From Candidatus Methylomirabilota bacterium (GTDB lineage: Bacteria > Methylomirabilota > Methylomirabilia > Rokubacteriales > CSP1-6), in the NCBI GenBank assembly GCA_046726415.1, contig JBKPAK010000010.1, positions 1-18,860 on the forward strand: a stretch of DNA of 18,860 nt, given 5' to 3'. A program made the translations under genes and the position numbers. The notes beneath the pieces were generated by a model, which saw only the letters and a list, made by a program, of their open reading frames with translations, searched no databases and was not told the origin of the DNA. Below, in pieces: positions 1 to 16,099 of this stretch (position 1 is the first letter of the stretch; every line of letters starts with the position of its first letter).

Positions 1-1
1 C

Positions 2-238
2 GACGCCGTCTGGTCCGAGCCCGCCCGCGCGTCCGCGTGCATCGCGTGGACCCGGGAGCTGTGGGAGGCGGTGCGTCCGTATTCCACGGGCCGTGTCTAC
101 GTGAACTTTCTCGGGGAGGAGGGGCAGGACCGAGTGCGGGCCGCCTACGGCGAGGCCAAGTACGAGCGGCTCCGGGCGCTCAAGCGCAAGCACGACCCGA
201 CGAACTTCTTCCGGCTGAACCAGAACATCCGACCGTAG
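2..238 (+). CDS. 3' end of FAD-binding oxidoreductase (berberine bridge enzyme-like C-terminal domain), truncated by window edge
   Basis: Frame 2 translates ...VYVNFLGEEGQDRVRAAYGEAKYERLRALKRKHDPTNFFRLNQNIRP*, with the typical BBE YxN...Y..L..LK.K.DP.NFF..NQNI signature; TAG at 236-238. Confidence 0.9.
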   Translation, partial: DAVWSEPARASACIAWTRELWEAVRPYSTGRVYVNFLGEEGQDRVRAAYGEAKYERLRALKRKHDPTNFFRLNQNIRP

Positions 239-380
239 ATCGGGCGGCGCACCGGGGACACTTCATGCCGGGGCCTCCCCTGGGCGACGTGAGCACTGAA
301 CGGCCGGCTCCACAACCTGGCTGAGCGGTGGCCAGACTCTAGCGCGCGGCGACTGGAAGGGTCAACCACTCACGACCCGA

Positions 381-403
381 TGTCACCTCAGGGGTTCACT
401 TCA
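381..403 (-). mobile_element. Isolated fragment of IS3-family left inverted repeat
   Basis: TGTCACCTCAGGGGTTCACTTCA matches 2655-2677 (TGTCACCTCAGGGGTTCACTCCA) at 22/23; CACTC also recurs at the same spacing further in. Confidence 0.75.
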
Positions 404-423
404 CAGTCTTTACCGGGTAGAAA

Positions 424-570
424 CCGGTGACATCCGGTGCAAGCGGTGACACGCCAGTGTTTATGCGGGTTGTCACCGCTTCGGCGCTGAGCGTTCAAGC
501 TCGATGCCCGAAGTGGTGACACGCCGCTATTCATGCGGGTTGTCACCGTTGTCACCGCTTGTCACCGGAT
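424..570. repeat. Iteron-like palindromic array, putative replication origin of an integrative element or phage satellite (copy A)
   Basis: GGTGACA at 426, 445, 515; TGTCACC at 471, 541, 550, 560; two ~40 bp hairpin units (441-481, 511-550) 70 bp apart. Confidence 0.7.
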
Positions 571-1067
571 TGGAGCCGGAAAAGGTGGCTGGACTGGCGC
601 TGTCCGGTTGTTCCTCGGTGTCGCCGCCCCGCCGTACCGGGCCCGAAGGGCGGCGCGTTGCTCAGCCGAGAGGACGTAGCACCCAGCGGCGCCGAGGTCC
701 ATCCCGCACCTGCTAGCGCACAACACCCTGGGGGTCATGAGACCAAGCCAGCCGCCGGGTACTTTTCACCCGGGCCGGGCTCGCAGGGCGCCCAGTAACT
801 GGGCGGGGTGAGCGTGTCGTCGTCCCGCTCGCGGATCGCTCGCAGGGCCTCGGGAGCCGCGCGACCGGCCCCGCCTCGGCGTCGGCATCCCGGACTGCCG
901 CGAGGGCCTTGGCGGCGTGGAGGATGTCCTGGCCGCGGTTGCCGTCTCCGAATCGGCGACGAAGCCGAGGGCGAGGGGCGGGACCAGAGGTCCACTGCCC
1001 GCCGATCGATCCCTTCCCGTTCGAGAGGGGCCAGGACAAGATCGAAGGCCGGGGCATATCCCCCCGG
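567..1067 (-). pseudogene. Frameshifted C-terminal remnant of DUF3631-like (primase/replication-associated) protein, copy A
   Basis: Across frames: ..RAVDLWS.PLALGFVAD..QDILHAAKALAAVRDADAEAG..ALRAIRERDDDTLT..VKSTRRLA..; resembles DUF3631 DRAADxWxPLLAIAD...RLAxLLxPxG pattern. Confidence 0.6.
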
Positions 1068-1245
1068 AGGCGGTTAAGGTACGCGCGCTCGTGGGGCTCG
1101 CCCTTGCGCCGCAGCAGCTCGGCCTCCTCGTCCGGCAGGTGCGGGCTCGGGCGCTCGCCGCGCGCCGAGCGCCGTGAGGCGGGCTTTCGACGTAGTCGTT
1201 GAGGTCCGAAGGGGAGAGGACGATCTGTCCGTCTACTCGCTGCAT
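1064..1245 (-). pseudogene. 5' fragment of TM0106-family RecB-like nuclease
   Basis: MQRVDGQIVLSPSDLNDYVE then, after a frameshift, PHLPDEEAELLRRKGEPHERAYLNRLR; cut off at the repeat A boundary. Confidence 0.75.
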
Positions 1246-1311
1246 GAATCGCCGCGATGATGCGCCAGCATCCTCAGCCGTGCAACCGATCGCGTATCTG
1301 ACCGGCGCCCG

Positions 1312-1746
1312 TCAGGCGAGTGGGTCGATCACCTCGAGGAAGGCGAAGCGCCGGAAATCCGCATCGCGGGTGTAGACCCGGGCGATCCCATGCTCACGCA
1401 TGAGGACCGCGGTGTGGAAGTCGTGGAACAGATTGCCGGCGAGACCCGGCACGGCCTCGGCAAGCTCCCGCGCGACCGCGGCGTGTCGTTCGGATTCCAC
1501 GAGGATCCGGTGTGCCGGCGTCGCCCGCAGCGCGTCCACGAACTCCAGCGCGGCGGCGGCGCTCCACGGATGCGGCAACACCCGCGGGTGGGTGACCACT
1601 CGGGCGAACTCATACAGAATCGCCCACGTTGTGTACCACGGGCCGCGCTCCGCTCGCCATCCCTCCAGCAGCTCGCGGCAGCGGTCGTGCTCCGGCGAGT
1701 CGGCGTTCGCCGCGTAGATCAGCACATTCGTGTCGACCACGAACAT
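1312..1746 (-). CDS. vapC: VapC PIN-domain ribonuclease toxin
   Basis: VVDTNVLIYA, conserved E, GNLFHDFH, TRDADF acidic PIN motifs; start overlaps the antitoxin stop. Confidence 0.92.
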   Translation of the reverse strand: MFVVDTNVLIYAANADSPEHDRCRELLEGWRAERGPWYTTWAILYEFARVVTHPRVLPHPWSAAAALEFVDALRATPAHRILVESERHAAVARELAEAVPGLAGNLFHDFHTAVLMREHGIARVYTRDADFRRFAFLEVIDPLA

Positions 1747-1976
1747 CAGCCCCGCTCCATCGCCTCGTAGAGCGCTTCCCGGTTCGCCACGTCGACGCGC
1801 GGCCGGCCCCCGTGGAAGCGCGGCAGCGGCGCGAGTGTTCGAGACGGCGCTTCTTCCTCCTCGAGCAGAAGCCGCAGCGCGCGCTCGACCAGGGCCGACA
1901 CCGTGGTGCGCTGACGCGCCGCTTCGCGCTTCAGCCTCCGCAGCAGGGGGTCGGGAATGATCAGGGTTGTCTTCAT
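1746..1976 (-). CDS. vapB: VapB ribbon-helix-helix antitoxin
   Basis: MKTTLIIPDPLLRRLKREAARQRTTVSALVERALR; directly upstream of the PIN gene; ATG at 1976. Confidence 0.88.
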   Translation of the reverse strand: MKTTLIIPDPLLRRLKREAARQRTTVSALVERALRLLLEEEEAPSRTLAPLPRFHGGRPRVDVANREALYEAMERG

Positions 1977-2012
1977 ACGGAAAACCATACCTTCAGGAAG
2001 GCTTGCCGTCAA
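1977..2012 (-). promoter_or_regulatory. sigma70 promoter of vapBC, probably leaderless
   Basis: Minus strand TTGACG-17 bp-TATGGT-7 bp-ATG; spacer carries palindrome CCTTC-CT-GAAGG. Confidence 0.75.
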
Positions 2013-2106
2013 TCAGCCTCTCCATCTCCCTCAAGACCTATGTGTACTCGCATGCCCATCGTCCGTGATACCGTGTCCCGTCGAGCCGCGTGGACACTCC
2101 TGTGAC

Positions 2107-2619
2107 TCATTTTCGGGCTTGTTGCACGGTGGGGTGACCCCCTAGAGTGAGACAACGAAATTGGTGACAGTCTCGCTGGTTTCTGCGGCTGCAGCGCGAA
2201 GATGCGGATCCGCCACGCCCGTCGCTCGGCCGGGGTGGTGCCTTGACGTACCGCAAGGCCCTTCTGAAAAAATCCAGTTCCAGCGCCTGTTCGCCGACCT
2301 TCCGCTCGAGCTCTGCGATCCGCTTCCCGGCTTCGTCGTCCCGGTCCGCCCGGCGCCGACCCCGGCGGCGGTGTCGCACTGCGCGCGGCGGCAGCGGCGC
2401 CGTGGGCTCGATCACCTCCCCAGCCGACCTCGGCGGCCGGCCCGCGCGGCGCAACGCGGCCGCCCCGCCCCGATCGTACCTGCTCCACCAGTCGTACAGC
2501 AGCTTGGGCCACACGTGGAGCTCGGCGGCCAGCGCCTGGACCCGCTCGCCCGCCAAGATGCGCAACACGGCGGCTTCCTTGAACTCCTGGCTGAAGACCC
2601 GCGCTCCCTTCCCGGGCAT
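2107..2619 (-). CDS. IS3-family transposase OrfA (HTH + leucine zipper); reads through the right IR
   Basis: RVFSQEFKEAAVLRILAGERVQALAAEL..LLYDW and KRIAELERKVGEQALELDFFRRAL; GAGGGGG SD before ATG 2619. Confidence 0.85.
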   Translation of the reverse strand: MPGKGARVFSQEFKEAAVLRILAGERVQALAAELHVWPKLLYDWWSRYDRGGAAALRRAGRPPRSAGEVIEPTAPLPPRAVRHRRRGRRRADRDDEAGKRIAELERKVGEQALELDFFRRALRYVKAPPRPSDGRGGSASSRCSRRNQRDCHQFRCLTLGGHPTVQQARK

Positions 2620-2677
2620 TCGTCCCCCCTCGACGAATATCACTCGTTTCTTTGTGTCACCTCAGGGGTTCACTCCA
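2130..2677 (-). mobile_element. Internally deleted IS3-family element (orfA only, no DDE orfB)
   Basis: 40 bp imperfect IRs TGGGGTGACCCCCTAGAGTGAGACAACGAAATTGGTGACA vs TGGAGTGAACCCCTGAGGTGACACAAAGAAACGAGTGATA (29/40), TG...CA ends; no target duplication seen. Confidence 0.8.
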
Positions 2678-2698
2678 AACCGCCTTCTTCGGGCAGAA

Positions 2699-2838
2699 AC
2701 CGGTGACATCCGGTGACAGCGGTGACACGCCAGTGTTTATGCGGGTTGTCACCGCTTCGGCGCTGAGCGTTCAAGCTCGATGCCCGAAGTGGTGACACGC
2801 CGCTATTCATGCGGGTTGTCACCGCTTGTCACCGGATT
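2699..2838. repeat. Iteron-like palindromic array (copy B)
   Basis: GGTGACA at 2702, 2712, 2721, 2791; TGTCACC at 2747, 2817, 2827; outer arms ATCCGGTGACAGCGGTGACA...TGTCACCGCTTGTCACCGGAT. Confidence 0.7.
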
Positions 2839-3307
2839 GGAGCGGGAACAGGTGGCCAGCGCGGCGCCGTCTGGCTGTTCGTCGGTGTCGGCCGCCCCGC
2901 CGTATCGGGCCGGAAGGTCGGTGAGTTGCTCAGCCGAGAGGACGTAGCACCAGCGTCGCCGAGCTCTATCCCGCACCTGCTGGCGCACGACGCCGAGCGG
3001 GTTGAGGAGGCCCGCCAGCCGCCGGGGCTCTTCACCAGTCCCACCCGAGCCAGCTCGCAAGTTTCCCAGAAACTGGGCTGGGCGAGCGTGTCTCCGTCCC
3101 GGACGCGGATAGCTCGCAGGCCTCTGAGGAGCCGCGCGGCCAGCCCAGCCTCGGCGTCAGCATCCCGGACTGCCGCGAGGGCCTTGGCGGCGTGGAGGAT
3201 GTCCTGGCCGCGGTGGAGCGAAGACCGGAGGCCCACTGTCCGGCCATCGATCCCTTCGTGCTCGAGAGGGGCCAAGGCAAGATCGTAGGCGGGGGCGATA
3301 TCCCCGG
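2803..3307 (-). pseudogene. C-terminal remnant of DUF3631-like protein, copy B
   Basis: EGIDGRTVGL..QDILHAAKALAAVRDADAEAGLAARLLRGLRAIR.. then frameshift, RRLAGLLNPLGVVRQQVRDRARRRWCYVLSAEQLTDLPARYG..SNPVTSGDNP running into the iterons. Confidence 0.62.
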
Positions 3308-3484
3308 GTCCGAGTCAGACAGGCGAGAGCACACTGGGCTCGCAGGCCTTCGGCTTCCGCGACGAAGCGCTCGCCGCCCTTCTCGAGACGCGCCACCACA
3401 CCGTCGCGCTCGAATCCGGGGCCAGCACGGTGATCAGCGCATCCTTCACCGGCTAATCCCGGGCCGGGGCGGTCGCTCGACCCA

Positions 3485-3725
3485 ATGGTGCTCCACTCGG
3501 CCGAGGTGTATGCCGCCATCGCCGACGCCGAGAGCGGCCTGGCCGCGTACCTGGACGATCTCCTCGCCGTCCGACGCACGAGGCCCGGGGGACGACCTCC
3601 TCTCGGCGCTGCTCGACGTGGAGCCGACGGCGATCGCATCTCGCGAGACGAGGTCGTCGACCTCCACTTGCTCCTGCTCATCGCCGGGCACGAGACGGCC
3701 GTGAACCTCATCGCGAGCGTCGGCC
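3485..3725 (+). pseudogene. Cytochrome P450 internal fragment (G-H-I helices)
   Basis: LAAYLDDLLAVRR.PG / DDLLSALLDVE / GDRISRDEVV..LLLLIAGHETAVNLI with frameshifts; I-helix AGHET motif; no heme-Cys region. Confidence 0.85.
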
Positions 3726-3781
3726 GAAGACGCCGGAGCCGCCAACCGCCCTGCCACCTATTGCCCGAGCGCCCGACGCTA

Positions 3782-3809
3782 TTGACACGCGATTCGGCTG
3801 CGCTCTAAT
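3782..3809 (+). promoter_or_regulatory. Candidate sigma70 promoter of the ABC operon
   Basis: TTGACA-16 bp-TCTAAT about 100 bp upstream of the permease. Confidence 0.5.
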
Positions 3810-3907
3810 AACCGCACCGTGAACTGATGCTGGCCTCGTCGGACCTCATCGACACGGTCGTGGCCGGGACGTTCGCGGCGGCAAGGCCGTTCGCGAAGGG
3901 ATGACGC

Positions 3908-4705
3908 ATGGCAGTGGTGACGCGTCCGCTTCGTCGATCCTGGATGTCTGGGGACGTGATCGTCAGCATGGTGACCGTGCTGGCGATCCTCACCGCCTGG
4001 AGCGTCGTCACCACGATGTTTCGCGTCTCACCGCTCGTGTTGCCTTCACCGAAGGCAATGGGCGATGAGCTGCAGGTCCTGCTCGGCGTCGGCTACGCCG
4101 GTAAACCGCTCCACGTTCACATCGCGGCGAGCCTCTTTCGCAGTCTGACCGGCCTCGTGGCGGGGATTCTACTCGCCGTCCCCATCGGCCTGGCCATGGG
4201 CTACAACCGTAGAGTCAGCGCCGCGCTGGTGCCCGTGTTCGGCTTCTTCCGCCCCATCCCGCCCATCGCGTTCATCCCGCTCATGATCCTGTGGTTCGGC
4301 ATCGGTGAGCTGAGCAAGATCCTCTTGATCTTCGCCGCGTCGTTCAACTACACCGTGCTCAACAGCGCGGCGGGGATGCGCGCGGTGCCCGAGCAGCTCA
4401 TTCGCAAGGGCCGCAACCTCGGACTCAATCGCTGGCAGCTCTTCACCAGCGTGATGCTGCCGGCGGCCATGCCCCACATCTTCACGGGCATCAAGACCTC
4501 GACGGCCGTGAGCTGGGCCATCGTGGTCGCCGCCGAGCTGATCGCCGCCCAGGAGGGGCTGGGCTTCATCATCCAGGACGCCGGCACCTTCTTTCGGATC
4601 ACCGACGTCTTCTTCGGGATCATCATCGTCGGCCTGATCGGGGTGAGCCTGGAGCTCGTCATCGCGTTCATCGAGCGCCGAACCCTGCACTGGCAGGGAA
4701 AGTGA
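3908..4705 (+). CDS. ABC transporter permease, TauC/SsuC (nitrate/sulfonate/taurine) family
   Basis: LPSP, HIAASLFR, RPIPPIAFIPL.ILWFGIGE, VAAELIAAQEGLG motifs. Confidence 0.93.
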   Translation: MAVVTRPLRRSWMSGDVIVSMVTVLAILTAWSVVTTMFRVSPLVLPSPKAMGDELQVLLGVGYAGKPLHVHIAASLFRSLTGLVAGILLAVPIGLAMGYNRRVSAALVPVFGFFRPIPPIAFIPLMILWFGIGELSKILLIFAASFNYTVLNSAAGMRAVPEQLIRKGRNLGLNRWQLFTSVMLPAAMPHIFTGIKTSTAVSWAIVVAAELIAAQEGLGFIIQDAGTFFRITDVFFGIIIVGLIGVSLELVIAFIERRTLHWQGK

Positions 4706-4717
4706 GCGGCGGCCCCC

Positions 4718-5526
<809 letters not shown>

Positions 5527-5530
<4 letters not shown>

Positions 5531-6654
5531 AGCGAGACCGCATCATCGACTGCGACGGACACCTGCTCGAGCCCCATGATCTCTGGGAGCGCTACATGCC
5601 TGGCGCGCTCCGAGCCAAGGCACCCCGGCTGGTGCGAGACCGCCAGGGTGGCATCCGGATCGCGATGGAGGACCGGCTCTATCCGCAGCCCGAGGGTAAG
5701 GGCAAGGGCTTCCCGGGATTACCGGAGGCCTGGTACGCGATCGACGACAAGGGGCGGGTGAAGTCGCACGAGATCGTTCAGGCCCAGTCGCGCCTCAAGG
5801 CCATGGACACCGACGGCATCGACGTGGCCGTGCCGTTCCCCACCCTGGGGCTCTACACGGTCGATGCACGCGACCCGGAGCTGAACGCAGCCATCTGCCG
5901 CGCCTACAACGACTGGCTCCATCAAGAGTACCTCGCGGCGGACCGCGCGCGCCTCATCGGGATCGGCATGGTGACGTTGCGCGACGTGAAGGCGGCGGTG
6001 GCGGAGCTGCGCCGCTGCGTTACCGAGCTCGGCTTCAAGGGCGTCTACCTCCGCCCGAACCCGATCGGCGACCGGAACCTGGAGAATCCCGCCCACGATC
6101 CGTTCTGGGGAGAGGCCGAGCGGCTCGGCGTGCCCGTCATGTTCCACGAGGGCACCGACGGCCAGCTGCCCACGGCCGGGCTCGACCGCTACGACAACTT
6201 CTTTATGACCCACATGATCTCCCACCCCTTCGAGCAGATGCTGGCTGCGCTGTCGATGATCGCCGGCGGCGTGCTCGAGCGCTTCCCCCGGCTGAAGGTC
6301 GCGTTTCTCGAATCCGGGTGCGCGTGGCTGCCTTTCTGGCTCCACCGGATGCACGAACACTGGGAGAAGCGACCCCAAGAAGTGCCGTGGCTCAAGAACG
6401 ACCCGGTAGCCATCTTCCGCCGGCAGTGCATCATCTCGTGCGACCCGGACGAGGCGACCATCCCCGCGGTGGTCAACTACATCGGCGAAGAGTACGTGTG
6501 CTGGGCGTCGGACTACCCGCACTGGGATGCCATCTTCCCCGGGGCGGTCGAGGAGCTACGCAAGCACATGAGCGGGCTCGGCGAGGGCGCGCAGCGCAAG
6601 ATTCTCGGCGAGAACGCGCGCCGGTTCCTGGCCCTCGACGGCCGGGCCGCCTGA
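5527..6654 (+). CDS. Amidohydrolase_2 family metal-dependent hydrolase/decarboxylase
   Basis: Start MKRDRIIDCDGH (ATGA overlap), YNDWL, GVLERFPRLKVAFLESG, WASDYPHWD, ILGENA. Confidence 0.9.
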
Positions 6655-6673
6655 TCCTCAGCCGCTGACATGA

Positions 6674-6697
6674 CGGGGCCGGCGCTCGCCGGCCCCG
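6674..6697. other. GC-rich intergenic hairpin (no U-tract)
   Basis: CGGGGCCGGCG-CT-CGCCGGCCCCG perfect inverted repeat. Confidence 0.6.
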
Positions 6698-6733
6698 CGC
6701 ATCACCATCCCGGCCGGCTCACGGGAGAGAACA

Positions 6734-7768
6734 ATGCCTGAGACCCCGACGCGCCGCACATTCGTCGCTGCCACCCTGGTGATCGCGCTCGTCGTCACCC
6801 TGCTCCTGCCGCTCGGCGGTGCGCGCGCCCAGCAGGCGCCGCAGCCCATCAAGATCGGGTATCAGGCGGTCGCCTCCTGGCTGCTGTTCGGGGCGCGGGC
6901 GATGAAGCTCTACGAGAAGGCGGGACTGGCGCCGACCTTCGTGAAGTTCACGGCCGGGGCGCCCATGATCGCCGCCGCCCAGAGCCAGAGCATAGACGTC
7001 GCCATGGTGGGCACGGTGCCGTTCCTGGCCGGCGTCGCCTCCGGTGTCGACTGGGTCTACATCGGCGTCGACAACGAGTACCCACGGGCCGTGGGCTTCG
7101 TGGCGCGAAAGGACGGCGGCGTCCGCTCGCTGGCCGACCTGAAGGGAAAGACCATCGGCTTCTTCCGAGGCTCGACGTCTCACTACGCGGTGCTGACGGT
7201 CCTGAAACGCCAGGGCATTCCCACGACCGAGGTCAAGCTCCTGCAGCTCGAGCCGGCCCAGCAGGTCGCGGCGATGATGAACCGCCAGATCGACGTGGCC
7301 GCGACCTGGGAGCCGTGGATGCAGAAGATGGTCCACCAGGCGGACGGCACGATCGTCGCGCGCGAGGCCGATATCGGCATCTACACGGGCCTCGGGGTGT
7401 ACGCCGTGCGCAGCTCGTGGCTCAAGGCGAACGGGGAAACGGCGCGGCGTTACTTGCGGGCCCTGGTCATGGCCTACGACGCGCTGGAGAAGGATCCCTC
7501 GCCGGCGATCAACGCGGTGATGCAGGAGATGGGAATTCCCGAGGAGTGGGCGCGGGCCATCTTCAAGGAAGCCGGACTGCCCGCGATCTACAAGCAGAGC
7601 GATGCCACCTATCGCTACTCCGCCGCCAAGGACAGCCCGCTCCAGGCAAGCATGGCCGATCTCGCGAAGTTCCTGTTCGAGGAGAAAGTGCTGCCGAGGC
7701 AGGTGGACGTGAGTGGGCTGATGGACGGCGCGCCTCTGGCCGAGGTGCTCGCCGCGCACAAGAAGTGA
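6734..7768 (+). CDS. ABC transporter substrate-binding protein, SsuA/TauA family
   Basis: Signal peptide ending ARA-QQ, IKIGYQ, DLKGKTIG..GSTSHY, IDVAATWEPW. Confidence 0.92.
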   Translation: MPETPTRRTFVAATLVIALVVTLLLPLGGARAQQAPQPIKIGYQAVASWLLFGARAMKLYEKAGLAPTFVKFTAGAPMIAAAQSQSIDVAMVGTVPFLAGVASGVDWVYIGVDNEYPRAVGFVARKDGGVRSLADLKGKTIGFFRGSTSHYAVLTVLKRQGIPTTEVKLLQLEPAQQVAAMMNRQIDVAATWEPWMQKMVHQADGTIVAREADIGIYTGLGVYAVRSSWLKANGETARRYLRALVMAYDALEKDPSPAINAVMQEMGIPEEWARAIFKEAGLPAIYKQSDATYRYSAAKDSPLQASMADLAKFLFEEKVLPRQVDVSGLMDGAPLAEVLAAHKK

Positions 7769-7839
7769 AGAGCAGCTCGATCAGGGGCGGTATCGCCGTT
7801 GCGGCGTGTTGCAGGCGTGGTCCAGGCGCTCGGAGATAG

Positions 7840-7899
7840 GGACCTACCAGAACGGTCCTCAAGCTTATCGCGGAGCTCGAGGCAGAGGGGCGGCTATGA
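7840..7899 (+). pseudogene. 3' remnant of small toxin-like gene coupled to the downstream HTH gene
   Basis: GPTRTVLKLIAELEAEGRL*, stop overlaps the next start (ATGA 7896-7899); in-frame TAG at 7837 and no start codon. Confidence 0.5.
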
Positions 7900-8363
7900 A
7901 GATTCGCAGTGTGAACGCCAACAATCGACGCAAGGCGTTCGAGGTGACTGCGGGCAAGAGGCGGCTTATTTTCCCGTTTGCCAAACTCGAAGTGCGGCCA
8001 ACGTCGGATGATCCCATTGCCAAGGTGTTCGTCGACCAAGAGCTGGGCGCCGAGGGATTCACGTACTCCCTACGGTCGGGTCGCGAGGGAACGGTGCACA
8101 TCGAGGACATTCTCGAACACAACCAAGATCCTGACCACCTACGCGATCTCCTCCTCTATCGGCTGACGCTCGAAGCTCAGAAGGCTGCCGCCACCACGCC
8201 GCTGGCCAGGCGGGAAATTATCCGACGGCTCGGCACATCGCCGTCTCAGCTCTACCGACTTCTTGATCAGACGAACTACCGGAAGTCCGTCGACCAGTTA
8301 CTTCGACTGCTCAAGGTCCTCGATTGCGACGTCGAACTCGTGGTACGGACAAGGAGCGCGTAG
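7896..8363 (+). CDS. XRE/Cro-like HTH antitoxin-type regulator
   Basis: C-terminal LARREIIRRLGTSPSQLYRLLDQTNYRKSVDQLLRLL helix-turn-helix; start MKIRSV. Confidence 0.8.
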   Translation: MKIRSVNANNRRKAFEVTAGKRRLIFPFAKLEVRPTSDDPIAKVFVDQELGAEGFTYSLRSGREGTVHIEDILEHNQDPDHLRDLLLYRLTLEAQKAAATTPLARREIIRRLGTSPSQLYRLLDQTNYRKSVDQLLRLLKVLDCDVELVVRTRSA

Positions 8364-8422
8364 CCACGCGAGGCGAATCGCGCCACAGAGGAGCCGCAGG
8401 AGGGCAACAGGCGGTTCAAGCC

Positions 8423-8638
8423 ATGAAAGTCAACTACCATCCCGAGACGGACTCGCTGTACATCGACTTGTCGGAGCAACCGAGCGTCGACAGCCGTGAG
8501 ATCTCTGAAGGGGTTGTGCTCGACTACGACGAGTCAGGAAACCTGGTCGGTATAGACATCGACAACGCCAGCCGCAAGGTCGAGCTCCAGCGGTTTGTCG
8601 TCAGCCGGATCCCGGCACCAGTCGAAACCGCTGGCTAA
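8423..8638 (+). CDS. DUF2283 family protein (putative antitoxin)
   Basis: MKVNYHPETDSLYIDL...GVVLDYDESGNLVGIDI family pattern. Confidence 0.88.
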   Translation: MKVNYHPETDSLYIDLSEQPSVDSREISEGVVLDYDESGNLVGIDIDNASRKVELQRFVVSRIPAPVETAG

Positions 8639-8714
8639 CCCCACGCTTGAACCATCGCCCTCCTGGCGGCGCCGAACGTGCGTGGCTCAGGATCAAACTC
8701 CCCGCTCGTTAGCG
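8633..8714 (+). other. Degenerate attC-like integron recombination site
   Basis: GGCTAAC (contains the gene stop)-CCCAC-GCTTGAACCATCG ... CGTGGCTCAG ... GTTAGCG; L'-R' spacer too long. Confidence 0.5.
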
Positions 8715-9038
8715 GAGGAGTCTCTGACGCAGGAGCTTTCTGGCCAGGTCGTAAATGTCCTTCTTGTCTCCGGCTCGCCGGGAGCCGACGGCGACGATGA
8801 GAACGACGACCTCTCGGCGTTCGACGCGATAAACGATCCGGTAGCGCTGACCGACGGCCGGGATACTGCGGAAGCCGGCGAGTTCGCCGATGAGGGCCTT
8901 GCCCTGTTCCTCGGGCGATTTAGCAAGCTGATCGGCCCTCTGAGTGATGAGTCGCCGGATCCGCTGGTCGGGGATAGCCGCGGCGAGCTTGAGGGTGGTC
9001 TGCGTCCACGTGATCGCGAACGTGCGATCACCCGTCAT
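8709..9038 (-). CDS. RelE/ParE family toxin
   Basis: FAITWT..PEEQGKALIGELAGFRSI..GQRYRIVYRV..VVVLIVAVGSR. Confidence 0.9.
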   Translation of the reverse strand: MTGDRTFAITWTQTTLKLAAAIPDQRIRRLITQRADQLAKSPEEQGKALIGELAGFRSIPAVGQRYRIVYRVERREVVVLIVAVGSRRAGDKKDIYDLARKLLRQRLLR

Positions 9039-9304
9039 GCACCGAGACGCTTCTTGGCCTCCGCATGACTGACCACACGCCCGCGCTTGAGGTCATCGAG
9101 GCTGGCGCGGATCGCCGTGACCATCTCGGGATCACCGAGAATCTCGAGTGTCTCGACGATGCTCTCGTAAAGCTCCCACGGCAAGATGGCCAGCACCGGT
9201 TGCCCCCGGCGCGTGATGGTCACAGCGCGCTCTGGCGTCCGGGCGAGCCTCTCGGGGAGATCGAGCAACGCCTTCCGTGCTTCAGAGATCGTCAGCTGGG
9301 TCAT
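9035..9304 (-). CDS. Phd/YefM family antitoxin
   Basis: LTISEARKAL..AVTITRRGQPVLAIL..YESIVETLEIL.DP; ATGA overlap with the toxin. Confidence 0.92.
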   Translation of the reverse strand: MTQLTISEARKALLDLPERLARTPERAVTITRRGQPVLAILPWELYESIVETLEILGDPEMVTAIRASLDDLKRGRVVSHAEAKKRLGA

Positions 9305-9315
9305 CCGTGGCCTCT

Positions 9316-9356
9316 CTTGTACACCTAAATGTACAAGGAGATGGACAGATCGTCAA
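9316..9356 (-). promoter_or_regulatory. Promoter and YefM-type operator
   Basis: Minus strand TTGACG-17 bp-TACATT; palindrome CTTGTACA-CCTAAA-TGTACAAG with TGTACA at 9318 and 9330. Confidence 0.8.
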
Positions 9357-9370
9357 GTTCGAGCCCGTCA

Positions 9371-9444
9371 CGCCAACGAGGGCCTCATGCCTTCTCAGGC
9401 CTCAGGCAGCCTGGCGACTCACCGCTGAGCCCTTGGGGTCAGGT
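9371..9444 (+). other. Degenerate attC-like site
   Basis: CGCCAAC-GAGGGCCTCA ... GCTGAGCCCTTG-GG-GTCAGGT; arms pair with one extra base; core is GTC rather than GTT. Confidence 0.5.
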
Positions 9445-10371
9445 GGACAAGCGACGATCGCCCAAGGCTGCCATGTAATGGCGGAAGAAGCTGTCATCCA
9501 GCTGCCGGAGCGCTCGACGCTGGCGGACAACCTCGTCGGAGAGGCCACGCTGTTCGAGGGGCAGGAGAACCAGGAGATGTCGAAATACCCGGGCGCCGTC
9601 TCCCGCATCAGGGATGTCGTCGACGCAGAAGAGGGGAGCCAGGGCCCGGTGGCGCACGAGGAGCCAGGCAGGGAACCAGGCGGCGGCTGGCGCCCTGTCG
9701 GCCAGCGTCTCCTCGAAGGGGAGGACTTGCATGAAGGTGAGCCAGGCTGCGCGAAGGGCGTGGTCTGGCAGCGTCGGCGCGTGCGCCTCGAAGAAAAGGG
9801 GATCCATCCAGCACAGCGGCAGCCATAGGCAAGTCGCGATCTCGGGTGCGCCGAGGTGGTGCTGCGCCAACCCCATCCAGTAGCGCAGGGGCGGCGTGTC
9901 CCTCCACCGCGGTTCATCGTCGACGGCAGCGCGCACGCCCGGCCAATCGCCGTACTGCTGGCAAAGCCACGCGCGGTGTGCCGACGGATGGGCGGGTGCG
10001 AAGGGAAGATCGGCTGCCCCCGCGGCCAGCGCTTGCCACACCGGACGGAGGAAGGCGGAGGCGTCCCCACCGAGGAAACGCCGCGCCGCCGGGACGAGTC
10101 GGCGCTCGGTCATCTCGATCCGCCCGGTCAGTTCCTCATGGGTGAGGGCGACGATGGGCACGGTCAGCATCTCGGCCAGCACCGTGAGTGCTCCCAGGTC
10201 AGGGTGAAGTGGGTAGTCCTGCCCGAGACGACACAGGGTCGCCTCGGTGCGATCGACATCGCGCATGATGAGCCCGGTCACGACGTCGTGGATCAGGATG
10301 GCGTCACGGCCGTCGACGAAGAGATCGAGCTGTCGCCGATCGGCAGTCTGATCCGCAGGCGCTCGATCCAT
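9439..10371 (-). CDS. Hypothetical protein, predicted helical, with N-terminal QLDLF motif
   Basis: 310 aa ORF with protein-like composition (Trp-rich: WLPLCWMDP, AWFPAWLL); QLDLF at 10318-10332. Confidence 0.7.
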   Translation of the reverse strand: MDRAPADQTADRRQLDLFVDGRDAILIHDVVTGLIMRDVDRTEATLCRLGQDYPLHPDLGALTVLAEMLTVPIVALTHEELTGRIEMTERRLVPAARRFLGGDASAFLRPVWQALAAGAADLPFAPAHPSAHRAWLCQQYGDWPGVRAAVDDEPRWRDTPPLRYWMGLAQHHLGAPEIATCLWLPLCWMDPLFFEAHAPTLPDHALRAAWLTFMQVLPFEETLADRAPAAAWFPAWLLVRHRALAPLFCVDDIPDAGDGARVFRHLLVLLPLEQRGLSDEVVRQRRALRQLDDSFFRHYMAALGDRRLST

Positions 10372-10555
10372 CAAGGAAGGACCATCCGCATCATCTGCTT
10401 GGAGGAGCGATCATCCACCGCGGCATGTTCATGTATATCTGAACGGGAGCCTCGCCGTGAAGCGGGAACTCGAGAACAGGAGGCCGAAGAAAGGTGAGGC
10501 GTCGCCCAAGCTCGGCGAACCGATCGAGCAGCTCGCGGCCGAGGTGCGGCTCTGA

Positions 10556-10680
10556 AGCGACCTCCTGCCTGGCATCCAGGGCGTCGTCGTCTACGGGGCC
10601 GCGCTGATCATGATCATGCTGTACCCGCCCGAGGGGCTTACTGAGAGCGTACGCCAGGCGCTCCGGGAGCGCGCCGAGCG
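10556..10680 (+). pseudogene. 3' fragment of branched-chain amino acid ABC permease (LivM-like)
   Basis: LLPGIQGVVVYGAALIMIMLYPPEGL, last TM helix pattern YG...ML..PEGL; preceded by in-frame TGA. Confidence 0.65.
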
Positions 10681-10891
10681 CGGTGTCGCGGAGGCGGGAT
10701 CTCTCTGGCTGGACGCCCTGCGCTGGTCTACACTCTGTGAGGAGGCCATCGCGATAGCGCGAGCAGCTCGCCGGCCGGGTCTCGCCCGGCCGGCGCTCGC
10801 GGGAACGGACGTACCCCCGCGCGTTCCGCCGCATGCGACCGCTGTTCTCGGTTAGCCTCGGAGCAGGGCCAACATACCCCCGGAGGTCCCA

Positions 10892-11350
10892 GTGCCAGTC
10901 GATCGCTCGTACGTGGCCGAGAACGATGCAGAGCGGGAGCGGCTTCGCGCGCTTGCCCGGCGCCTGAGCGACCAGGACCTCGCGCGCCCGATGGACGCTG
11001 GCTGGACGGTGGCCGCCGTGCTCGCGCACCTGACGTTCTGGGATCAGCGCATCGTGGTCCTGCTCGACCAGTGGGAGCGAAAGGGCGCCTCGTGGACGCC
11101 GCCCCTGGAAGAGGCGCGCGACGTCAACTGGATCAACGATGCGGCGAAGCTGCTCTGCCTGGCCCTCCCGCCCCGTGTCGCGGCGGAGCTCGCCCTGGCC
11201 GTCGCCGAGACGGTGGATCGGCGAGTCGCCGCGGTGAGCGACGCGATCATCGAGGCAAACGCGCGGGCCGGCGCGCCCCTCAACTGGCGGCGCGCCGAGC
11301 ACCGCCGCGAGCACCTGGACGAGATCGAACGCGCGCTCCGGCGCGCCTGA
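10892..11350 (+). CDS. DinB/YfiT superfamily (maleylpyruvate isomerase N-terminal-like) protein
   Basis: GWTVAAVLAHLTFWD and EHRREHLDEIE His triad; GGAGG SD before GTG. Confidence 0.85.
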   Translation: MPVDRSYVAENDAERERLRALARRLSDQDLARPMDAGWTVAAVLAHLTFWDQRIVVLLDQWERKGASWTPPLEEARDVNWINDAAKLLCLALPPRVAAELALAVAETVDRRVAAVSDAIIEANARAGAPLNWRRAEHRREHLDEIERALRRA

Positions 11351-11431
11351 CGCCCCGTCCCTGGCGCCGCCGCGCGGTCGACTGGGACAATCTCGGCGCG
11401 GGCCGGCGGGGCTCGCGCGAGGAGGGCGGTC

Positions 11432-11614
11432 ATGGCTGCAGAGCGCGCGCAGCACGCTGACCTCTTCCACGCCACGCCGGGCGCCCAGGTCGATCTTTTC
11501 GCCACCGAAGCCAAGCTCGCGCCGCGGCGAGATCCGCGCTGGACGTCACCAACAGAGACGACTGATGACGCAGACGTCGTCGATTGGTTGACACTCAACG
11601 AGAGGGTCCAGTAG
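11432..11614 (+). CDS. Small hypothetical protein or 5' gene fragment
   Basis: Strong SD GAGGAGG before ATG; TGgGACAAT extended -10-like motif upstream; no family recognised. Confidence 0.35.
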   Translation: MAAERAQHADLFHATPGAQVDLFATEAKLAPRRDPRWTSPTETTDDADVVDWLTLNERVQ

Positions 11615-11657
11615 TGTGACGCCACCGACGAACACACGCCGGGCCTGCCAGGAGGAC

Positions 11658-12097
11658 ATGAAAGGCGAGAAGATCGGTCGGAAGCCATTCGAATCGCTAT
11701 CACGTTAGGCTCCCCCAAGATCCGGACGGCGGTTCGCTACGTCGCCACGAACCTTGGCGTGCCCCATCCGCTCGCCAACGAGCGTTTCGAGACTGACGAT
11801 GTGGATCTCTTCGTCCGCCGGTTCGGCGAGCTGATCAATGCGAGCCGCGATGGCCAGACCGCGATCGCCGAACTCCTCCGGCTCCACCTTCGACGCGTCC
11901 AGCACGACCAGGTTGGGCTGGCGGTCCGTCTGTATCCCTTCACCCGTTCGCGGCACCAGGACCAGCCCCGCGTGGTCATCATCGATCCGGCGGTGGCGTT
12001 CGGTCGCCCGGTGATCGCTGGTACGGGAATCGCCACGGCTAGCATCGCCGAACGCTACCGGGCCGGGGAGTCGATTGCGGACCTCGCCGAGGACTAC
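11658..12097 (+). pseudogene. DUF433 / VapB45-like antitoxin, frameshifted and truncated
   Basis: AIR..RYHVRLP/KIRTAVRY..HPLANERFETD.VDLFV..LINASRDGQ..IDPAVAFGRPVIAGTGIAT..ERYRAGESIADLAEDY, then abrupt junction; 5' boundary uncertain (SD + ATG at 11658). Confidence 0.8.
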
Positions 12098-12182
12098 ACC
12101 GGGCCGTTGAGATCGAGGCCCTGATCCAGGGGGCGGCGTCCGCGCATTCGTGCTGACGGCGAAAAATCTCAGTGGCCCGTAG
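12097..12182 (+). pseudogene. Internal fragment of VapC45-like PIN toxin
   Basis: HRAVEIEALIQG / GVRAFVLTAKNLSGP* with a frameshift; fused to the DUF433 remnant. Confidence 0.6.
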
Positions 12183-12271
12183 AGAACCTCGAGCTCGGCT
12201 CCCACCGCCGCGCTGCCCGTCCCGGCCGCGCCGGTAGGGTCTCAGTTTGAATTGGGCGGTGGCGCGCTCCG

Positions 12272-12478
12272 CCCTCTGATCTTTACCTCGCGCGTGCCCG
12301 TGCACTCGGCCGGGCTGTAACGCTGCTCGGCGCTCGCGCCCTTCCCTGAATCGCTGCCGTTCAGCTTGATGAGCATGGCGTAATCCACGTTCGCGCCGAA
12401 GGCGCCCTCTACAGCCTCTAGGTAGGGCTTGTGGTCGTCGGTGGTGAGCTGGACTCGATGGGCCAGGCGTGCAGCCAT
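12272..12478 (-). mobile_element. IS1-family transposase internal fragment
   Basis: RLAHRVQLTTDDHKPYLEAVEGAFGANVDYAMLIK...RYSPAECTG. Confidence 0.8.
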
Positions 12479-12715
12479 CTCGACGAGCCCTCGCAGGGCC
12501 TCGGCCCCCGCATCGTCGAGCTGATCTTCGAGGCCATCGACCCCATCCGCCGGCAGCGGCGATTGACGATCCTGCTCGTGGAGCAGCGCGTGGTGGAGGC
12601 GCTGGAGCTGTGCGACCGCGGCTACGTGCTGGAGACCGGGCGCGTCGTGCTGGAAGGGCCGCGCGAGGCACTGCTGCCCGACGCGCGAGTGCAGCGCGCC
12701 TACCTTGGGGCGTGA
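12479..12715 (+). pseudogene. 3' fragment of LivF-type ABC ATPase
   Basis: LDEPSQGL.P..TILLVEQ..ALELCDRGYVLETGRVV..VQRAYLGA*; Walker A missing. Confidence 0.85.
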
Positions 12716-12793
12716 GCGACGACCGCTCGGTCAGTAGTTCCGGGCGTCCCGGGCGCTGGGCCGGGAACGCGCATGCCCCGAGGCGACGCTTCC

Positions 12794-12829
12794 TTGACCG
12801 TGCTGACGTAAGACGATATCTTACCCAGC
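12794..12829 (+). promoter_or_regulatory. sigma70 promoter and operator of abrB-vapC, probably leaderless
   Basis: TTGACC-17 bp-TATCTT-7 bp-ATG; palindrome GTAAGA-CGATA-TCTTAC over the -10, flanked by TGCTG/CAGCA. Confidence 0.75.
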
Positions 12830-13060
12830 ATGAAGACGAGAGTGTCCTCGAAGGGCCAGATCGTACTGCCCGCCGAGATTCGACAGCAAGATGACATCGA
12901 AGCGGGACAGGAATTCGAGGTCGAACGCCTCGATCGTGGCGAATACCGGCTCCTGCGCCGCAGCGCTCCGACAAACGAAGGGGTTGTCGATTGGCTGCTC
13001 GCATGTCCCGACAAAGGATTCTTCGTCGCGGTTGAATCCGAGTCGACCAACACCCTGTGA
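12830..13060 (+). CDS. AbrB/MazE/SpoVT family antitoxin
   Basis: MKTRVSSKGQIVLPAEIRQQDDIEAGQEFEV. Confidence 0.9.
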   Translation: MKTRVSSKGQIVLPAEIRQQDDIEAGQEFEVERLDRGEYRLLRRSAPTNEGVVDWLLACPDKGFFVAVESESTNTL

Positions 13061-13467
13061 GGTACCTGGTCGACGCCAACATCCTCAGCGAACCTACCAA
13101 GCTGTCGCCCGACTCCAGGGTTGTCGAGTGGCTCCGCCGCAACGAGCGGGAGATCGCGGTCGATCCCATCATTCTCGGCGAGGTCCGGTTCGGCATTCTC
13201 CTCCTGCCAAAGGGCCGGCGCCGCGCCAGGCTCGAACGGTGGTTCGATGAGGGCGTTCAGCGCGTCGAATGTCTGCCGTGGGAGATGCAAACGGGGCTGC
13301 GCTGGGCAGAATTGCTCGCCCGTCTGCGCGGGTCGGGCCGCGCCATGCCGATCAAGGACAGCCTCATCGCCGCCACCGCCCTTGTCCATGGGCTCGTCGT
13401 CGCCACCCGAAACCGCACCGATTTCGAAAAGGCGGGAGTGAAGGTCGTCGTCCCCTTCGCTGGCTGA
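13057..13467 (+). CDS. vapC: VapC PIN-domain toxin
   Basis: YLVDANILSE, GE, DSLIAATALVHGLVVATRN..DF; GTGA overlap. Confidence 0.92.
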   Translation: MRYLVDANILSEPTKLSPDSRVVEWLRRNEREIAVDPIILGEVRFGILLLPKGRRRARLERWFDEGVQRVECLPWEMQTGLRWAELLARLRGSGRAMPIKDSLIAATALVHGLVVATRNRTDFEKAGVKVVVPFAG

Positions 13468-13762
13468 GAACTCGTCTTCCGGCCGTCGCCAGCGTGCACG
13501 GCTCTCGCAGCTCGGGCGGTGCGGGTTCCGGGTGCCACCGCCCAGCCTCTCGTGGGCGTGACGTTCTCCTCGGACCTCGTGCCAACCGCGCGAGATCCAG
13601 GTCTACGAGCTCGTCGAGCTTCGACCTGAGCACGTCGTCCAGCCGGAGAGCCACGGGCTTCGCGTGGTGGTCATCTTTCCCTCAGCGTAGAACAGCGTGC
13701 GAGCGAGTGCTATAGTCGGGCGCCGCGCATCGCTTCATTCCGCCAGGAAAGGAAAAACTCGG

Positions 13763-16099
13763 ATGGTCGACCACGCCGGCGTCGGCGCGCCCCGGAAGCG
13801 CAAGGAGGATCCGCCATTCCTCACCGGCGCCTCCCGCTTCACCGACGACATCTCGCTGCCCGGGCAGCTCCACGGCGTGGTCGTGCGGTGCCCCCACGCC
13901 CACGCGCGCATCCGGGCCGTCGACGCCACCGCCGCTCTCGCCGCGCCTGGCGTGCGGCTGGTCCTGACGGCGGCCGACATCGAGGGCGAGATCGTCCGAC
14001 CGATTCCCTCCTTCTCTCGCACCCCGCCCTTCGACATCCGCGGCCCGGACGGGGCGATGGCGTCCGAGGCCGAGCAGTTTCCCCTGGCCGGAGAGGTGGC
14101 GCGCTATGCCGGCCAGCCGGTCGTGCTCCTGGTGGCCGAGACGCTGGCCGAGGCCGAGGACGCGGCCGAGCTGGTGCGGATCGACTACGAGCCACAGCGG
14201 GCGGCCATCGGCATCGAGCAGGCGCTCGCGCCGGGAGCGGCTCTTGTCTGGGACGATCGGCCGGACAACGTGTCGTTCGAGTGGGAGGGCGGGGACCGGA
14301 GGGCCGTCGATGCGGCGTTCGCCCGCGCGGCTCACGTGGCACGGGTGGAGGTCGTCAACAACCGCATTGCCCCGGTCTTCATGGAGCCCCGGTCGGCCGT
14401 CGCCGAGTACGACCCCGCCGCGTCGCGGTGGACGCTGCGGGTCGGGTGCCAGTCCGCCCACGGCATGCGCGCCGTGCTCGTGCACATGATGGGAATCGAC
14501 CTCGACCGCCTGCGCGTCGTCGTACCCGACACCGGCGGCGGCTTCGGGGCGCGCGGGGGCGTGTACCCGGAATATCCGCTGCTCCTCGTCGCCGCCCGGC
14601 GGCTCGGGCGTCCCATCAAGTGGACGGCCGAGCGGCGGGAGGCGTTCCTCAGCGATTACCAGGCGCGCGATCACGTGCTGCGTGGCGAGCTTGCCCTGGA
14701 CGCCGACGGCCGCTTCACCGCGATGCGGGTGCGGGTCGACTGGCACCACGGTGCGTATTTCACGACCCGCAACGTGTGGGTCATGGTGCACTACCTCCCG
14801 CCCACCCTCGGCGGGCCTTATCACATCCCGTGTGGCCACGTGGCCATCCGAGGCGTGTTCTCCCACACCACGCCCCTCGCCGCCTTCCGGGGCATCGGGC
14901 GCATCGAGGCGAACTACCTGACGGAGAGCCTGATCGAGGCGGCGGCTCGCGAGACGCGGATCGATCGGATCGAGCTCCGACGACGCAATATCGTGGAGCC
15001 CGGGGCCCTTCCCTGGACCACTCCGGGCGGCGCCGTCGTGACCGGGGGTGCCTTCAGGGAGCACTTCGAGCGCGCGCTCGATCTGGCCGACTGGCGTGGC
15101 TTTCCCGGGCGGCGCGCGACGAGCCGGCGCCGAGGTAGGCTCCGAGGCTTCGGCATCGCGATGTACGTGGAGAACGACGGGAGCACGCCGACGGAGTTCG
15201 CCGAGATCCAGGCGACGGGGGACGGCCGGGTGATGGTGTGCGCCGGTACCCAGGACTTCGGCATGGGCCACGCCACCGTGTTCTCCCAGATCGCCGCGGA
15301 GGCGCTGGGCGTGTCTTTCGACTGTGTCGATGTGATCTTCGGCCACACCGACCGGGTGGTACGGGGAGCCGGTTCCCACGGCTCGCGATCCGCCCGGATG
15401 GGCGGCGGGGCCGTTGTGCTCGGCGCGCAGAAGCTGGTGGAGGAGGGACGGCCGCGCGCGGCCCGTCTGCTCGAGGCGGCGGCAGCCGACCTCGTCTATA
15501 CGAGCGGGCGCTACACAGTCGCCGGCACCGACCGCGGGGTCGGGCTCTTCGAGGTCGCCGCGGCGGCCGAGGCAGCGCGCGAGCGCCTGGCGGCTCAGGC
15601 CGATTTCGTCACCGCCGGCGACGCCCACGCCACTGGCTGCCATGTCTGCGAGGTGACGGTCGATCCCGACGACGGCACCGTGCGGATCGAGCGGTACGCG
15701 ATCGTGGCCGATGTGGGGAAAGCTATCAATCCGCTGATCGTTCACGGCCAGATGCACGGAGGCGCCGCACAGGGCCTCGGTCAGGCGCTGATGGAGCACG
15801 TCGTCTTCGAGGCTGCCAGCGGACAGCCACTGGCCGGTAGCTTCATGGACTACGCCATCCCGCGGGCCGACGATCTTCCGCCTCTCACCGTGGAGCTCGA
15901 CGAGCTCGCCGAGCCCGACAATCCGCTCGGCGTGAAGGGCGCGGGAGAGAACGCGACCACCGGGGCGCCGGCCGCGGTGATGAACGCGCTGCGCGATGCC
16001 CTGCACGCGGCCGGCGCCGGCGGCGTCGACATGCCCGCCACCCGCGAGCGGGTGTGGCGCGCCCTCGATCGCGCCCGGCTTACCGATCGATCCAGGTGA
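13763..16099 (+). CDS. Xanthine dehydrogenase family molybdopterin-binding large subunit (CoxL/CutL-like)
   Basis: RKEDP.FLTG...FTDD, GGGFG, AFRGIGR, GQMHGGAAQGLGQAL, NPLGVKGAGE; start at ATG 13763 after AGGAAAGGA; TGcTATAGT extended -10 upstream. Confidence 0.92.
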   Translation: MVDHAGVGAPRKRKEDPPFLTGASRFTDDISLPGQLHGVVVRCPHAHARIRAVDATAALAAPGVRLVLTAADIEGEIVRPIPSFSRTPPFDIRGPDGAMASEAEQFPLAGEVARYAGQPVVLLVAETLAEAEDAAELVRIDYEPQRAAIGIEQALAPGAALVWDDRPDNVSFEWEGGDRRAVDAAFARAAHVARVEVVNNRIAPVFMEPRSAVAEYDPAASRWTLRVGCQSAHGMRAVLVHMMGIDLDRLRVVVPDTGGGFGARGGVYPEYPLLLVAARRLGRPIKWTAERREAFLSDYQARDHVLRGELALDADGRFTAMRVRVDWHHGAYFTTRNVWVMVHYLPPTLGGPYHIPCGHVAIRGVFSHTTPLAAFRGIGRIEANYLTESLIEAAARETRIDRIELRRRNIVEPGALPWTTPGGAVVTGGAFREHFERALDLADWRGFPGRRATSRRRGRLRGFGIAMYVENDGSTPTEFAEIQATGDGRVMVCAGTQDFGMGHATVFSQIAAEALGVSFDCVDVIFGHTDRVVRGAGSHGSRSARMGGGAVVLGAQKLVEEGRPRAARLLEAAAADLVYTSGRYTVAGTDRGVGLFEVAAAAEAARERLAAQADFVTAGDAHATGCHVCEVTVDPDDGTVRIERYAIVADVGKAINPLIVHGQMHGGAAQGLGQALMEHVVFEAASGQPLAGSFMDYAIPRADDLPPLTVELDELAEPDNPLGVKGAGENATTGAPAAVMNALRDALHAAGAGGVDMPATRERVWRALDRARLTDRSR

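Follow-up and report, generated by a model that had tools for sequence, protein, structure and literature searches.

Why have two short repeat arrays stayed almost identical to one another when the gene remnants beside them have diverged, and what are such arrays? The question is raised by an 18,860-nucleotide stretch of a Candidatus Methylomirabilota genome (assembly GCA_046726415.1, contig JBKPAK010000010.1, positions 1 to 18,860 of the forward strand), referred to here as the window. It is contig C10 of genome G000, the 7.6-Mb genome from which it comes. This study was concerned with the two arrays, A and B, and with the broken gene stub that runs into each of them. The arrays are very likely initiator-binding repeat hairpins, and probable replication origins, of two decayed integrative elements of the RepAM type, and constraint together with gene conversion would explain their near-identity. 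The features that carry this reading are the following.

424 to 568, no strand assigned: array A, with forward CGGTGACA at 425 and 444, forward TGGTGACA at 514, the variant CGGTGCAA at 435, and reverse copies TGTCACCG at 471, 541, 550 and 560.
444 to 478 and 514 to 548: the hairpin units of array A, flanking a 35-bp spacer hairpin at 479 to 513.
2700 to 2835, no strand assigned: array B, with forward repeats at 2701, 2711, 2720 and 2790 and reverse repeats at 2747, 2817 and 2827.
530 to 1025, minus strand: stub A, a predicted RepAM-type initiator pseudogene, about residues 754-924 of the 924-residue protein of genome G223.
2806 to 3417, minus strand: stub B, the same initiator pseudogene, about residues 656-924 of the G223 protein.

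The arrays belong to a segment of about 650 bp that occurs twice, in direct orientation, as copy A (381-1063) and copy B (2655-3305). Positions 442-548 and 2718-2824 are identical at 107/107 bases, as the first-pass annotation of this DNA had stated. Over the arrays as a whole (2697-2837 in copy B) 139 of 141 aligned bases are the same, plus one 9-bp indel, a unit present in array A that has no counterpart in array B. The number of differences jumps from 0 in the array to 7/32 immediately to its right, 33 of 40 bases are shared in the left flank, and the gene stubs agree at 392 of 454 positions (86.3%, gap-free columns) with at least 10 indels besides. The annotation had put the stubs at 75-80% identity by eye, which is near the BLAST value of 80.5% over 698 columns, gaps counted, and below that of the gap-free columns. 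At 86.3% identity, 1.2e-5 runs of at least 107 identical bases are expected. Thus, the divergence between the copies is non-uniform, and the earlier proposal of selection or gene conversion was right to that extent. A further identical run, of 57 bp, lies within the stubs at 885/3160 (expected runs of at least 54, 0.03). A tandem duplication of a 2275-bp unit was also considered and was rejected, as 1064-2654 has no counterpart after copy B.

The annotation had named an assembly collapse as something to be checked. Contigs of runs X2 and X3 end exactly at the edges of the core (442, 2717 and 2819), every one of them joined to the flank of its own copy, and one contig spans 442-589 without a difference. 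Because such contigs were found in independent runs, both copies are real and no collapse has occurred. Runs X1 and X4 gave no cover over the arrays, which is uninformative given their short contigs.

The arrays are built from one repeat word. Each contains seven perfect GGTGACA/TGTCACC heptamers, and an eighth lies outside each array at 381/2655. In 8-bp form, exact copies of CGGTGACA number six per array, and TGGTGACA occurs once in each; 13 copies of CGGTGACA occur in the window against 0.78 expected, a number reached in 0/200 shuffles. The heptamer has a genome-wide density of 0.088 per kb, and its clusters in the genome are solely arrays A and B, a third array on contig C93 and a half array on contig C133. 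The words recur every 9-10 bp, with the forward set on the left and the reverse set on the right. Two units of about 35 bp (444-478 and 514-548) lie 70 bp apart and are enclosed by the outer inverted repeats, so that the nested layout and the heptamer count of the annotation both hold. Each unit is an inverted word pair around a loop, TTCATGCGGGT, which is conserved even where the words differ, and the 35-bp spacer is itself a hairpin that varies with compensating changes. The word at 436 had been described as a mutated heptamer. It does deviate (GGTGCAA), but it is a recurrent variant, present as the same word or its complement in the related loci L010, L011 and L015. As single-stranded DNA, array A is predicted to fold at -51.7 kcal/mol (z -8.3) and array B at -48.5 kcal/mol (z -8.2), and 0/200 shuffles were equally stable.

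The gene beside each array was identified through an intact relative. None of the seven open reading frame (ORF) pieces from the stubs (0/7) matched DUF3631 or anything else in Pfam. In a tblastn search with the G223 protein, stub A was recovered at E 7e-25, its pieces lying in frames -2 and -1 and interrupted by in-frame stops and frameshifts, and stub B at E 8e-27, 1e-10 and 7e-5, its matches divided between frames -3 and -1 and a stretch deleted from its interior. The intact gene (G223:C22, locus L015) encodes 924 residues with PF12965 (DUF3854, Toprim-like) and PF12307 (DUF3631) above their cut-offs. The stubs are assigned to DUF3631 because this relative matches them and carries PF12307, which bears out the DUF3631-like label of the annotation by way of the G223 protein rather than by direct Pfam matches. 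By homology, then, the stubs are C-terminal ends of a RepAM-type (DUF3631) replication initiator. The parts of the G223 protein are a Toprim-like domain, a probable MCM-like AAA+ ATPase and a DUF3631 region ending in a putative winged helix; it had no match in PHROGs or NCBIfam, or by phmmer against PDB sequences. Its array has the same word as the window, CGGTGACA, and the stop codon of the initiator gene (rep) lies within the first hairpin loop. The G223 island is ordered as a tyrosine integrase, an HTH_17 gene, unknown genes, rep, the array and two small genes, followed by chromosomal transport genes; no FtsK-type transfer gene was seen among the ORFs scanned.

In the window the tail of each stub runs into its own array, A into A and B into B, and what survives of the gene is its last 170-270 codons, which are broken. 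Thus, the arrays are orphans. A tblastn search with 12 G223 ORFs found no integrase or other element gene left in the window, and the arrays and stubs are therefore relics.

The link between array and gene is general. When 251 genomes of the phylum were searched for PF12307, matches came up at 13 places, spread over 11 genomes. Twelve loci were examined, L044 being the other half of the L037 locus. At 10/12 of them the DUF3631 gene has a repeat or hairpin array that covers its stop codon or follows it closely, and each array has a word of its own; the words include GGTTACA, CCGCAAC, GTAGAGA, GTCTACA/GTCAACA, CGTCGAC and GGTGACA. Proteins L038 and L045, identical at 271/389 residues, both go with the word GTAGAGA. 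The association of such arrays with replication genes elsewhere, which the annotation had suggested checking, was thus found.

The annotation had also suggested that an intact DUF3631 protein might serve the arrays in trans, and this was not supported. The only intact DUF3631 gene in the assembly, on contig C174 (L047), has an integrase 1.3 kb upstream and ends in an array of a different word, GGTTACA/TGTAACC (G000:C174:12609-12735), inside which the contig stops. The C174 protein gave a marginal primase match only in the PHROGs and NCBIfam searches. Further stubs with arrays, and many other initiator fragments, lie on other contigs. C306:8978-9119 holds a C-terminal rep stub and an array with the words GTAACAA/GTTGACA, followed by a homologue of gene X of G223; C147:28230-28370 holds a C-terminal rep stub, which starts right after a tRNA 3' end, and an array with the word GTTGACA; and C250 holds an unbroken N-terminal half of an initiator gene that runs off the contig. 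No intact C-terminal domain of the cognate clade, and thus no intact cognate initiator, was found in this assembly.

This design is already known. PF12307/DUF3631 is the family of RepAM, which initiates replication of pMEA300, an integrative conjugative element of actinomycetes (PMC3218068, Table 1). As a review describes from the work of te Poele et al. 2006, the 3' end of the pMEA300 repAM gene carries identical 8-bp repeats to which the purified RepAM protein binds; these repeats fold into a stable hairpin, the putative origin (PMC2440964). According to the same review, similar hairpins occur in pMEA100, pSE211 and the actinomycete integrative and conjugative element (AICE) remnant Sare1208, and pSE101 and pSE102 keep the hairpin though they are without repAM. 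Judged from sequence, the window arrays share with RepAM-type systems the link to the gene, the 8-bp words and the hairpin. The likeness to pMEA300 includes the same initiator family, identical 8-bp repeats, direct and inverted, that overlap the 3' end of the gene, a stable predicted hairpin, and an element that bears an integrase (here in G223 and C174); as in Sare1208, pSE101 and pSE102, the hairpin outlives the gene. The systems differ in several respects. The hosts are Actinobacteria there, whereas the array records here are titled Rokubacteria, NC10 and Chloroflexota. Here the initiator is fused to the Toprim-like DUF3854 domain, the array combines a spacer hairpin and outer repeats with two 35-bp units whose loop is conserved, the exact motif CTTGAT is absent (by eye), and the initiator gene is dead in the window. 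What is new, then, is the occurrence in these host lineages, the fusion to a Toprim-like domain, the arrangement in two units that share a conserved loop, and the number of orphan arrays. The annotation's proposal of a cis-acting, origin-like, protein-binding module is supported by the RepAM precedent and by the 10/12 gene link, to the extent that precedent and sequence can support it.

A search of the 251 genomes with array B gave matches in 11/251, G000 included, and a pattern scan of named records found three metagenome-assembled genomes (MAGs), titled Rokubacteria, NC10 and Chloroflexota. Loci L013 and L014 share repeat positions with L010 and L011 and were counted once. Outside G000, an intact DUF3631 gene stands beside such an array only at L015; the other arrays lie in unrelated neighbourhoods, several adjoining toxin-antitoxin genes, with short rep tails or none, in genomes that hold initiator fragments only. 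Half-deleted or decayed arrays were also found (C133, L019, L020 and L021), and because similarity to an array was what led to these loci, intact arrays are over-represented among them. Across 15 aligned arrays the words change in concert, direct and inverted copies alike (GGTGAGG/CCTCACC, GTTTACA/TGTAAAC, GGTGATG/CATCACC), and RNAalifold scored double changes in 16/31 predicted pairs. RNAalifold chose one long palindrome rather than separate hairpins. As all the words are alike, several pairings fit, and the covariation therefore cannot separate structure from protein binding. The concerted change of the direct copies points to one binding protein, as far as sequences can tell, rather than to the fold alone.

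Two records deserve separate mention. In a Chloroflexota-titled MAG, at a contig start (L009:28-185), the units are near-identical to those of the window, with one change in unit 1, and the spacer is longer and different; this is either cross-phylum transfer or a binning error. In genome G201 there are three complete arrays, of which two, each next to a MerR gene, share a contig at a distance of 7.6 kb. This genome also holds six C-terminal fragments of rep, and four of these begin near residue 793-802. The C-terminal stub with its array seems to be the commonest relic.

A structure was predicted for the C-terminal 419 residues of the G223 protein with AlphaFold (predicted local distance difference test, pLDDT, 67.7; predicted template modelling score, pTM, 0.62). 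Among its best Foldseek matches were SaPIbov1 Rep (8tch, E 3.5e-4), PriRep1 and Cch of the staphylococcal cassette chromosome mec, SCCmec (5dgk, E 4e-3). VIA-align gave MCM a Z of 11.0 (212 aligned, root-mean-square deviation, rmsd, 4.1) and Cch a Z of 10.6 (276 aligned, rmsd 12.1). The modelled C-terminal end is a helix-helix-helix-strand-strand-helix unit, and 10/10 aligned proteins carry both the Walker A motif (R/K)RCGK(S/T) and DE motifs that resemble Walker B. In the mechanism we propose, the C-terminal winged helix would read the 8-bp words, which are arranged as two inverted sets with a spacing of about one helical turn, the MCM-like ATPase would assemble on the array and open the DNA, the Toprim-like domain would prime, and the element would replicate after excision.

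Other known systems are more distant. The origin of Staphylococcus aureus pathogenicity islands (SaPIs) lies just 3' of rep and has two sets of short repeats. The Rep proteins of SaPIs and other phage-inducible chromosomal islands (PICIs), together with Cch, are island-borne initiators with helicase and primase activities (PMC7145576). They resemble the modelled C-terminal half as its best structural matches; they differ in showing no sequence similarity (phmmer, PDB sequences) and low TM-scores, and the central region is not AT-rich here. In satellite phage P4, the ori and crr sites carry short direct and inverted repeats bound by the C-terminal domain of the alpha protein. The annotation had drawn the comparison with P4, whose alpha is a fused primase-helicase (PMC7145576). 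P4 is an analogue only and not the closest known system; pMEA300 RepAM is the precise counterpart. P4 alpha was not among the structural matches listed, which does not exclude a relationship, and a literature search for the P4 iteron word that had been quoted gave unrelated primer matches only.

The near-identity of the twins is best considered region by region. Among arrays A, B and C93, 0/65 sites of the hairpin units vary, and among six copies (A, B, C93, L010, L011 and L015) 2/65 vary. In the same six copies the spacer varies at 8/35 sites, the flank at 9/19 and the stub at 48/81. The spacer has 0/35 differences between A and B, against 6/35 from C93. Constraint carried over from the active elements is not, by itself, enough to account for 2 differences in 141 bp. 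In addition, one contig of 490 nt in soil-metagenome run X4 joins position 872 to 3148, skipping 2275 bp, and its junction adjoins the 57-bp identical run; it is either a crossover hybrid of relics A and B or the state before there were two copies. The identity of the spacer, the abrupt rise in differences at the right edge of the array and the A/B recombinant point to gene conversion. While the elements were active, strong constraint would have acted on the hairpin units, and short-tract conversion between copies 2.3 kb apart would have homogenised the rest. Short-tract conversion on top of real constraint on the units is thus favoured as the most likely explanation.

Several points weigh against the reading of the arrays as RepAM-type origins kept alike by constraint and conversion. 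First, the binding and replication experiments for this family are confined to actinomycetes, so that the origin role is one we infer by analogy; even there, the review leaves rolling-circle versus theta replication open and suggests a regulatory role for the site as well (PMC2440964). Secondly, the review places a pC194-like CTTGAT motif within the hairpin of RepAM elements (PMC2440964), and the exact nick motif is absent from 424-568 and 2700-2835, as judged by eye without a formal scan. By eye, the array has two versions with one mismatch, CTCGAT at 500-505 and, read from the opposite strand, CTTGAA at 494-499. Third, the array region is not AT-rich, unlike classical iteron origins. Fourth, no recognisable array follows the stop codon of the open DUF3631 frames L039 (G015:C25) and L043 (G181:C19); L043 is close kin of the G223 protein. 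Fifth, the Foldseek TM-scores are low (0.25-0.31) and the confidence of the model is middling, and the recombinant contig has a depth of 5 and comes from a single run. Lastly, a codon-position test meant to date the A/B divergence gave an intermediate answer. Substitutions between the stubs at positions 1, 2 and 3 number 17/149, 18/148 and 26/146, and those of two intact pairs 75, 62 and 195 of 385, and 100, 72 and 220 of 389. Given the weak third-position excess in the stubs, much of the A/B divergence looks neutral, recent and later than the decay of the gene, which leaves room for selection on the orphan arrays.

Continuing purifying selection of this kind, with the arrays titrating incoming initiators as decoys or fired in trans by a resident element, is possible though not needed, and we regard it as the doubtful but strongest alternative. 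The orphan arrays A, B, C93, L010 and L011 have no private change in the 65 bp of units while their stubs are broken, and the divergence of stubs A and B is nearly neutral. The three G201 copies with a complete array have rep homology that ends at different points, arrays are present in genomes where only rep fragments were found, and pSE101 and pSE102 kept their hairpin without repAM, according to the review (PMC2440964). However, this assembly has no intact cognate initiator, and the intact gene of C174 goes with another word. Selection on the repeats does not explain why a poorly constrained spacer is identical in A and B. Decayed and half arrays exist (L020, C133, L019, L021), and the loci were found in a way that favours intact arrays. 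A more specific form, in which the host keeps orphan arrays as a chromosomal "origin decoy" that gives incompatibility-type immunity against incoming related elements, is improbable on our estimate. Cloned iterons titrate Rep, which is the basis of iteron-mediated plasmid incompatibility, and this would be the mechanism if the orphan arrays are decoys; no cognate Rep was found in the genome. If true, the decoy would account for the survival of complete arrays beyond that of their genes in several genomes of the phylum, and for the diversification of the words.

Some of the remaining alternatives involve the genes next to the arrays. Read along the minus strand, each stub leads into its array and then into a 22-bp motif, after which there is nothing recognisable at A, and at B an orfA-like gene of the insertion sequence (IS) family IS3. 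The features are as follows.

381 to 402, minus strand: 22-bp motif, copy A, with 1/22 difference from copy B; the A/B homology ends here.
2655 to 2677, minus strand: 22-bp motif, copy B, of repeat family D10, just upstream of the IS3-like orfA.
2107 to 2643, minus strand: IS3-family orfA-like helix-turn-helix (HTH) gene, with Pfam HTH_28 and HTH_Tnp_1 and without orfB.
1312 to 2012, minus strand: VapBC-type toxin-antitoxin pair, between the two relics.
1746 to 2012, minus strand: its ribbon-helix-helix (RHH) antitoxin (Pfam RHH_1, 5.2e-6).
1312 to 1746, minus strand: its PIN toxin (Pfam PIN, 1.7e-19).

The orfA-like gene scored 32 bits with NCBIfam transpos_IS3, below the cut-off of 160. It sits where relatives have the next gene of the element and is outside the origin module. 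The 22-bp motif is possibly an IS terminal repeat, given its position upstream of orfA in copy B; beside array A it stands alone, without orfA. A similar 20-bp end motif stands by itself at array A and at the array in L020. In G000, orfA occurs only at 2107-2643 of the window (minus strand), at C93:1386-1766 and at C133:779-991, each adjoining an array, and its carrier may be an IS that targets the array palindromes. To the left of the two copies lies the end of a BBE-domain gene and to the right ABC-transport and amidohydrolase genes. At 3485-3808 (plus strand) there is an ORF fragment with a cytochrome-P450-like helix motif by eye, for which Pfam gave no match at E 0.01.

It is unlikely that the array is mainly an operator or terminator, for the initiator gene or for a downstream gene such as gene X of G223, rather than an origin. 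In G223, L010, L011, L040 and L045 the array does occupy the gap between the rep stop codon and the gene that follows, a long GC-rich palindrome can act as a transcription terminator, and the review raises a regulatory role for the RepAM site (PMC2440964). The two roles are, however, compatible, and the arrays of the window are still intact even though array A has lost its downstream gene and array B has the IS gene in its place. Turn-spaced words in two inverted sets beside a helicase-type initiator are also the usual layout of an origin.

It is very improbable that the arrays are transposon ends, or a miniature inverted-repeat transposable element (MITE), moved by the IS3-like OrfA. OrfA homologues in the genome occur only beside arrays (B, C93 and C133), and an 18-bp motif adjoining the array contains the heptamer. 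However, there is no orfB or full IS copy in the genome, an orfA homologue was found at 0/17 array loci searched in other genomes, and the array is tied to rep in 10/12 cases. The rep homology extends past the array to a point that differs between copies, and target duplications were not observed. This explanation was rejected on the varying end points and the lack of a transposase. A structured RNA gene or an assembly artefact is hardly credible, since the strong predicted folding and the compensatory changes in 16/31 predicted pairs are set against Rfam 15, which gave no family match (the sole hit, HgcF, scored 17.6 bits where 70 are required, with E 0.55, and lay outside the arrays), against direct word copies that co-vary although a fold does not require it, and against the independent runs that hold both copies with their own flanks.

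The practical value of these results is modest and lies in better annotation of mobile-element remnants in MAGs. For island origins they offer an annotation rule, namely a turn-spaced repeat hairpin on the stop codon of a DUF3631 gene, with a word specific to the lineage. With the relics as a natural collection, one can ask for how long an array that binds a protein persists once that protein is gone, and whether conversion or selection maintains it. In addition, on this reading the replicon of RepAM initiator and hairpin, described only in actinomycete elements, would extend to uncultured soil lineages, where the initiator occurs as a Toprim-like fusion.

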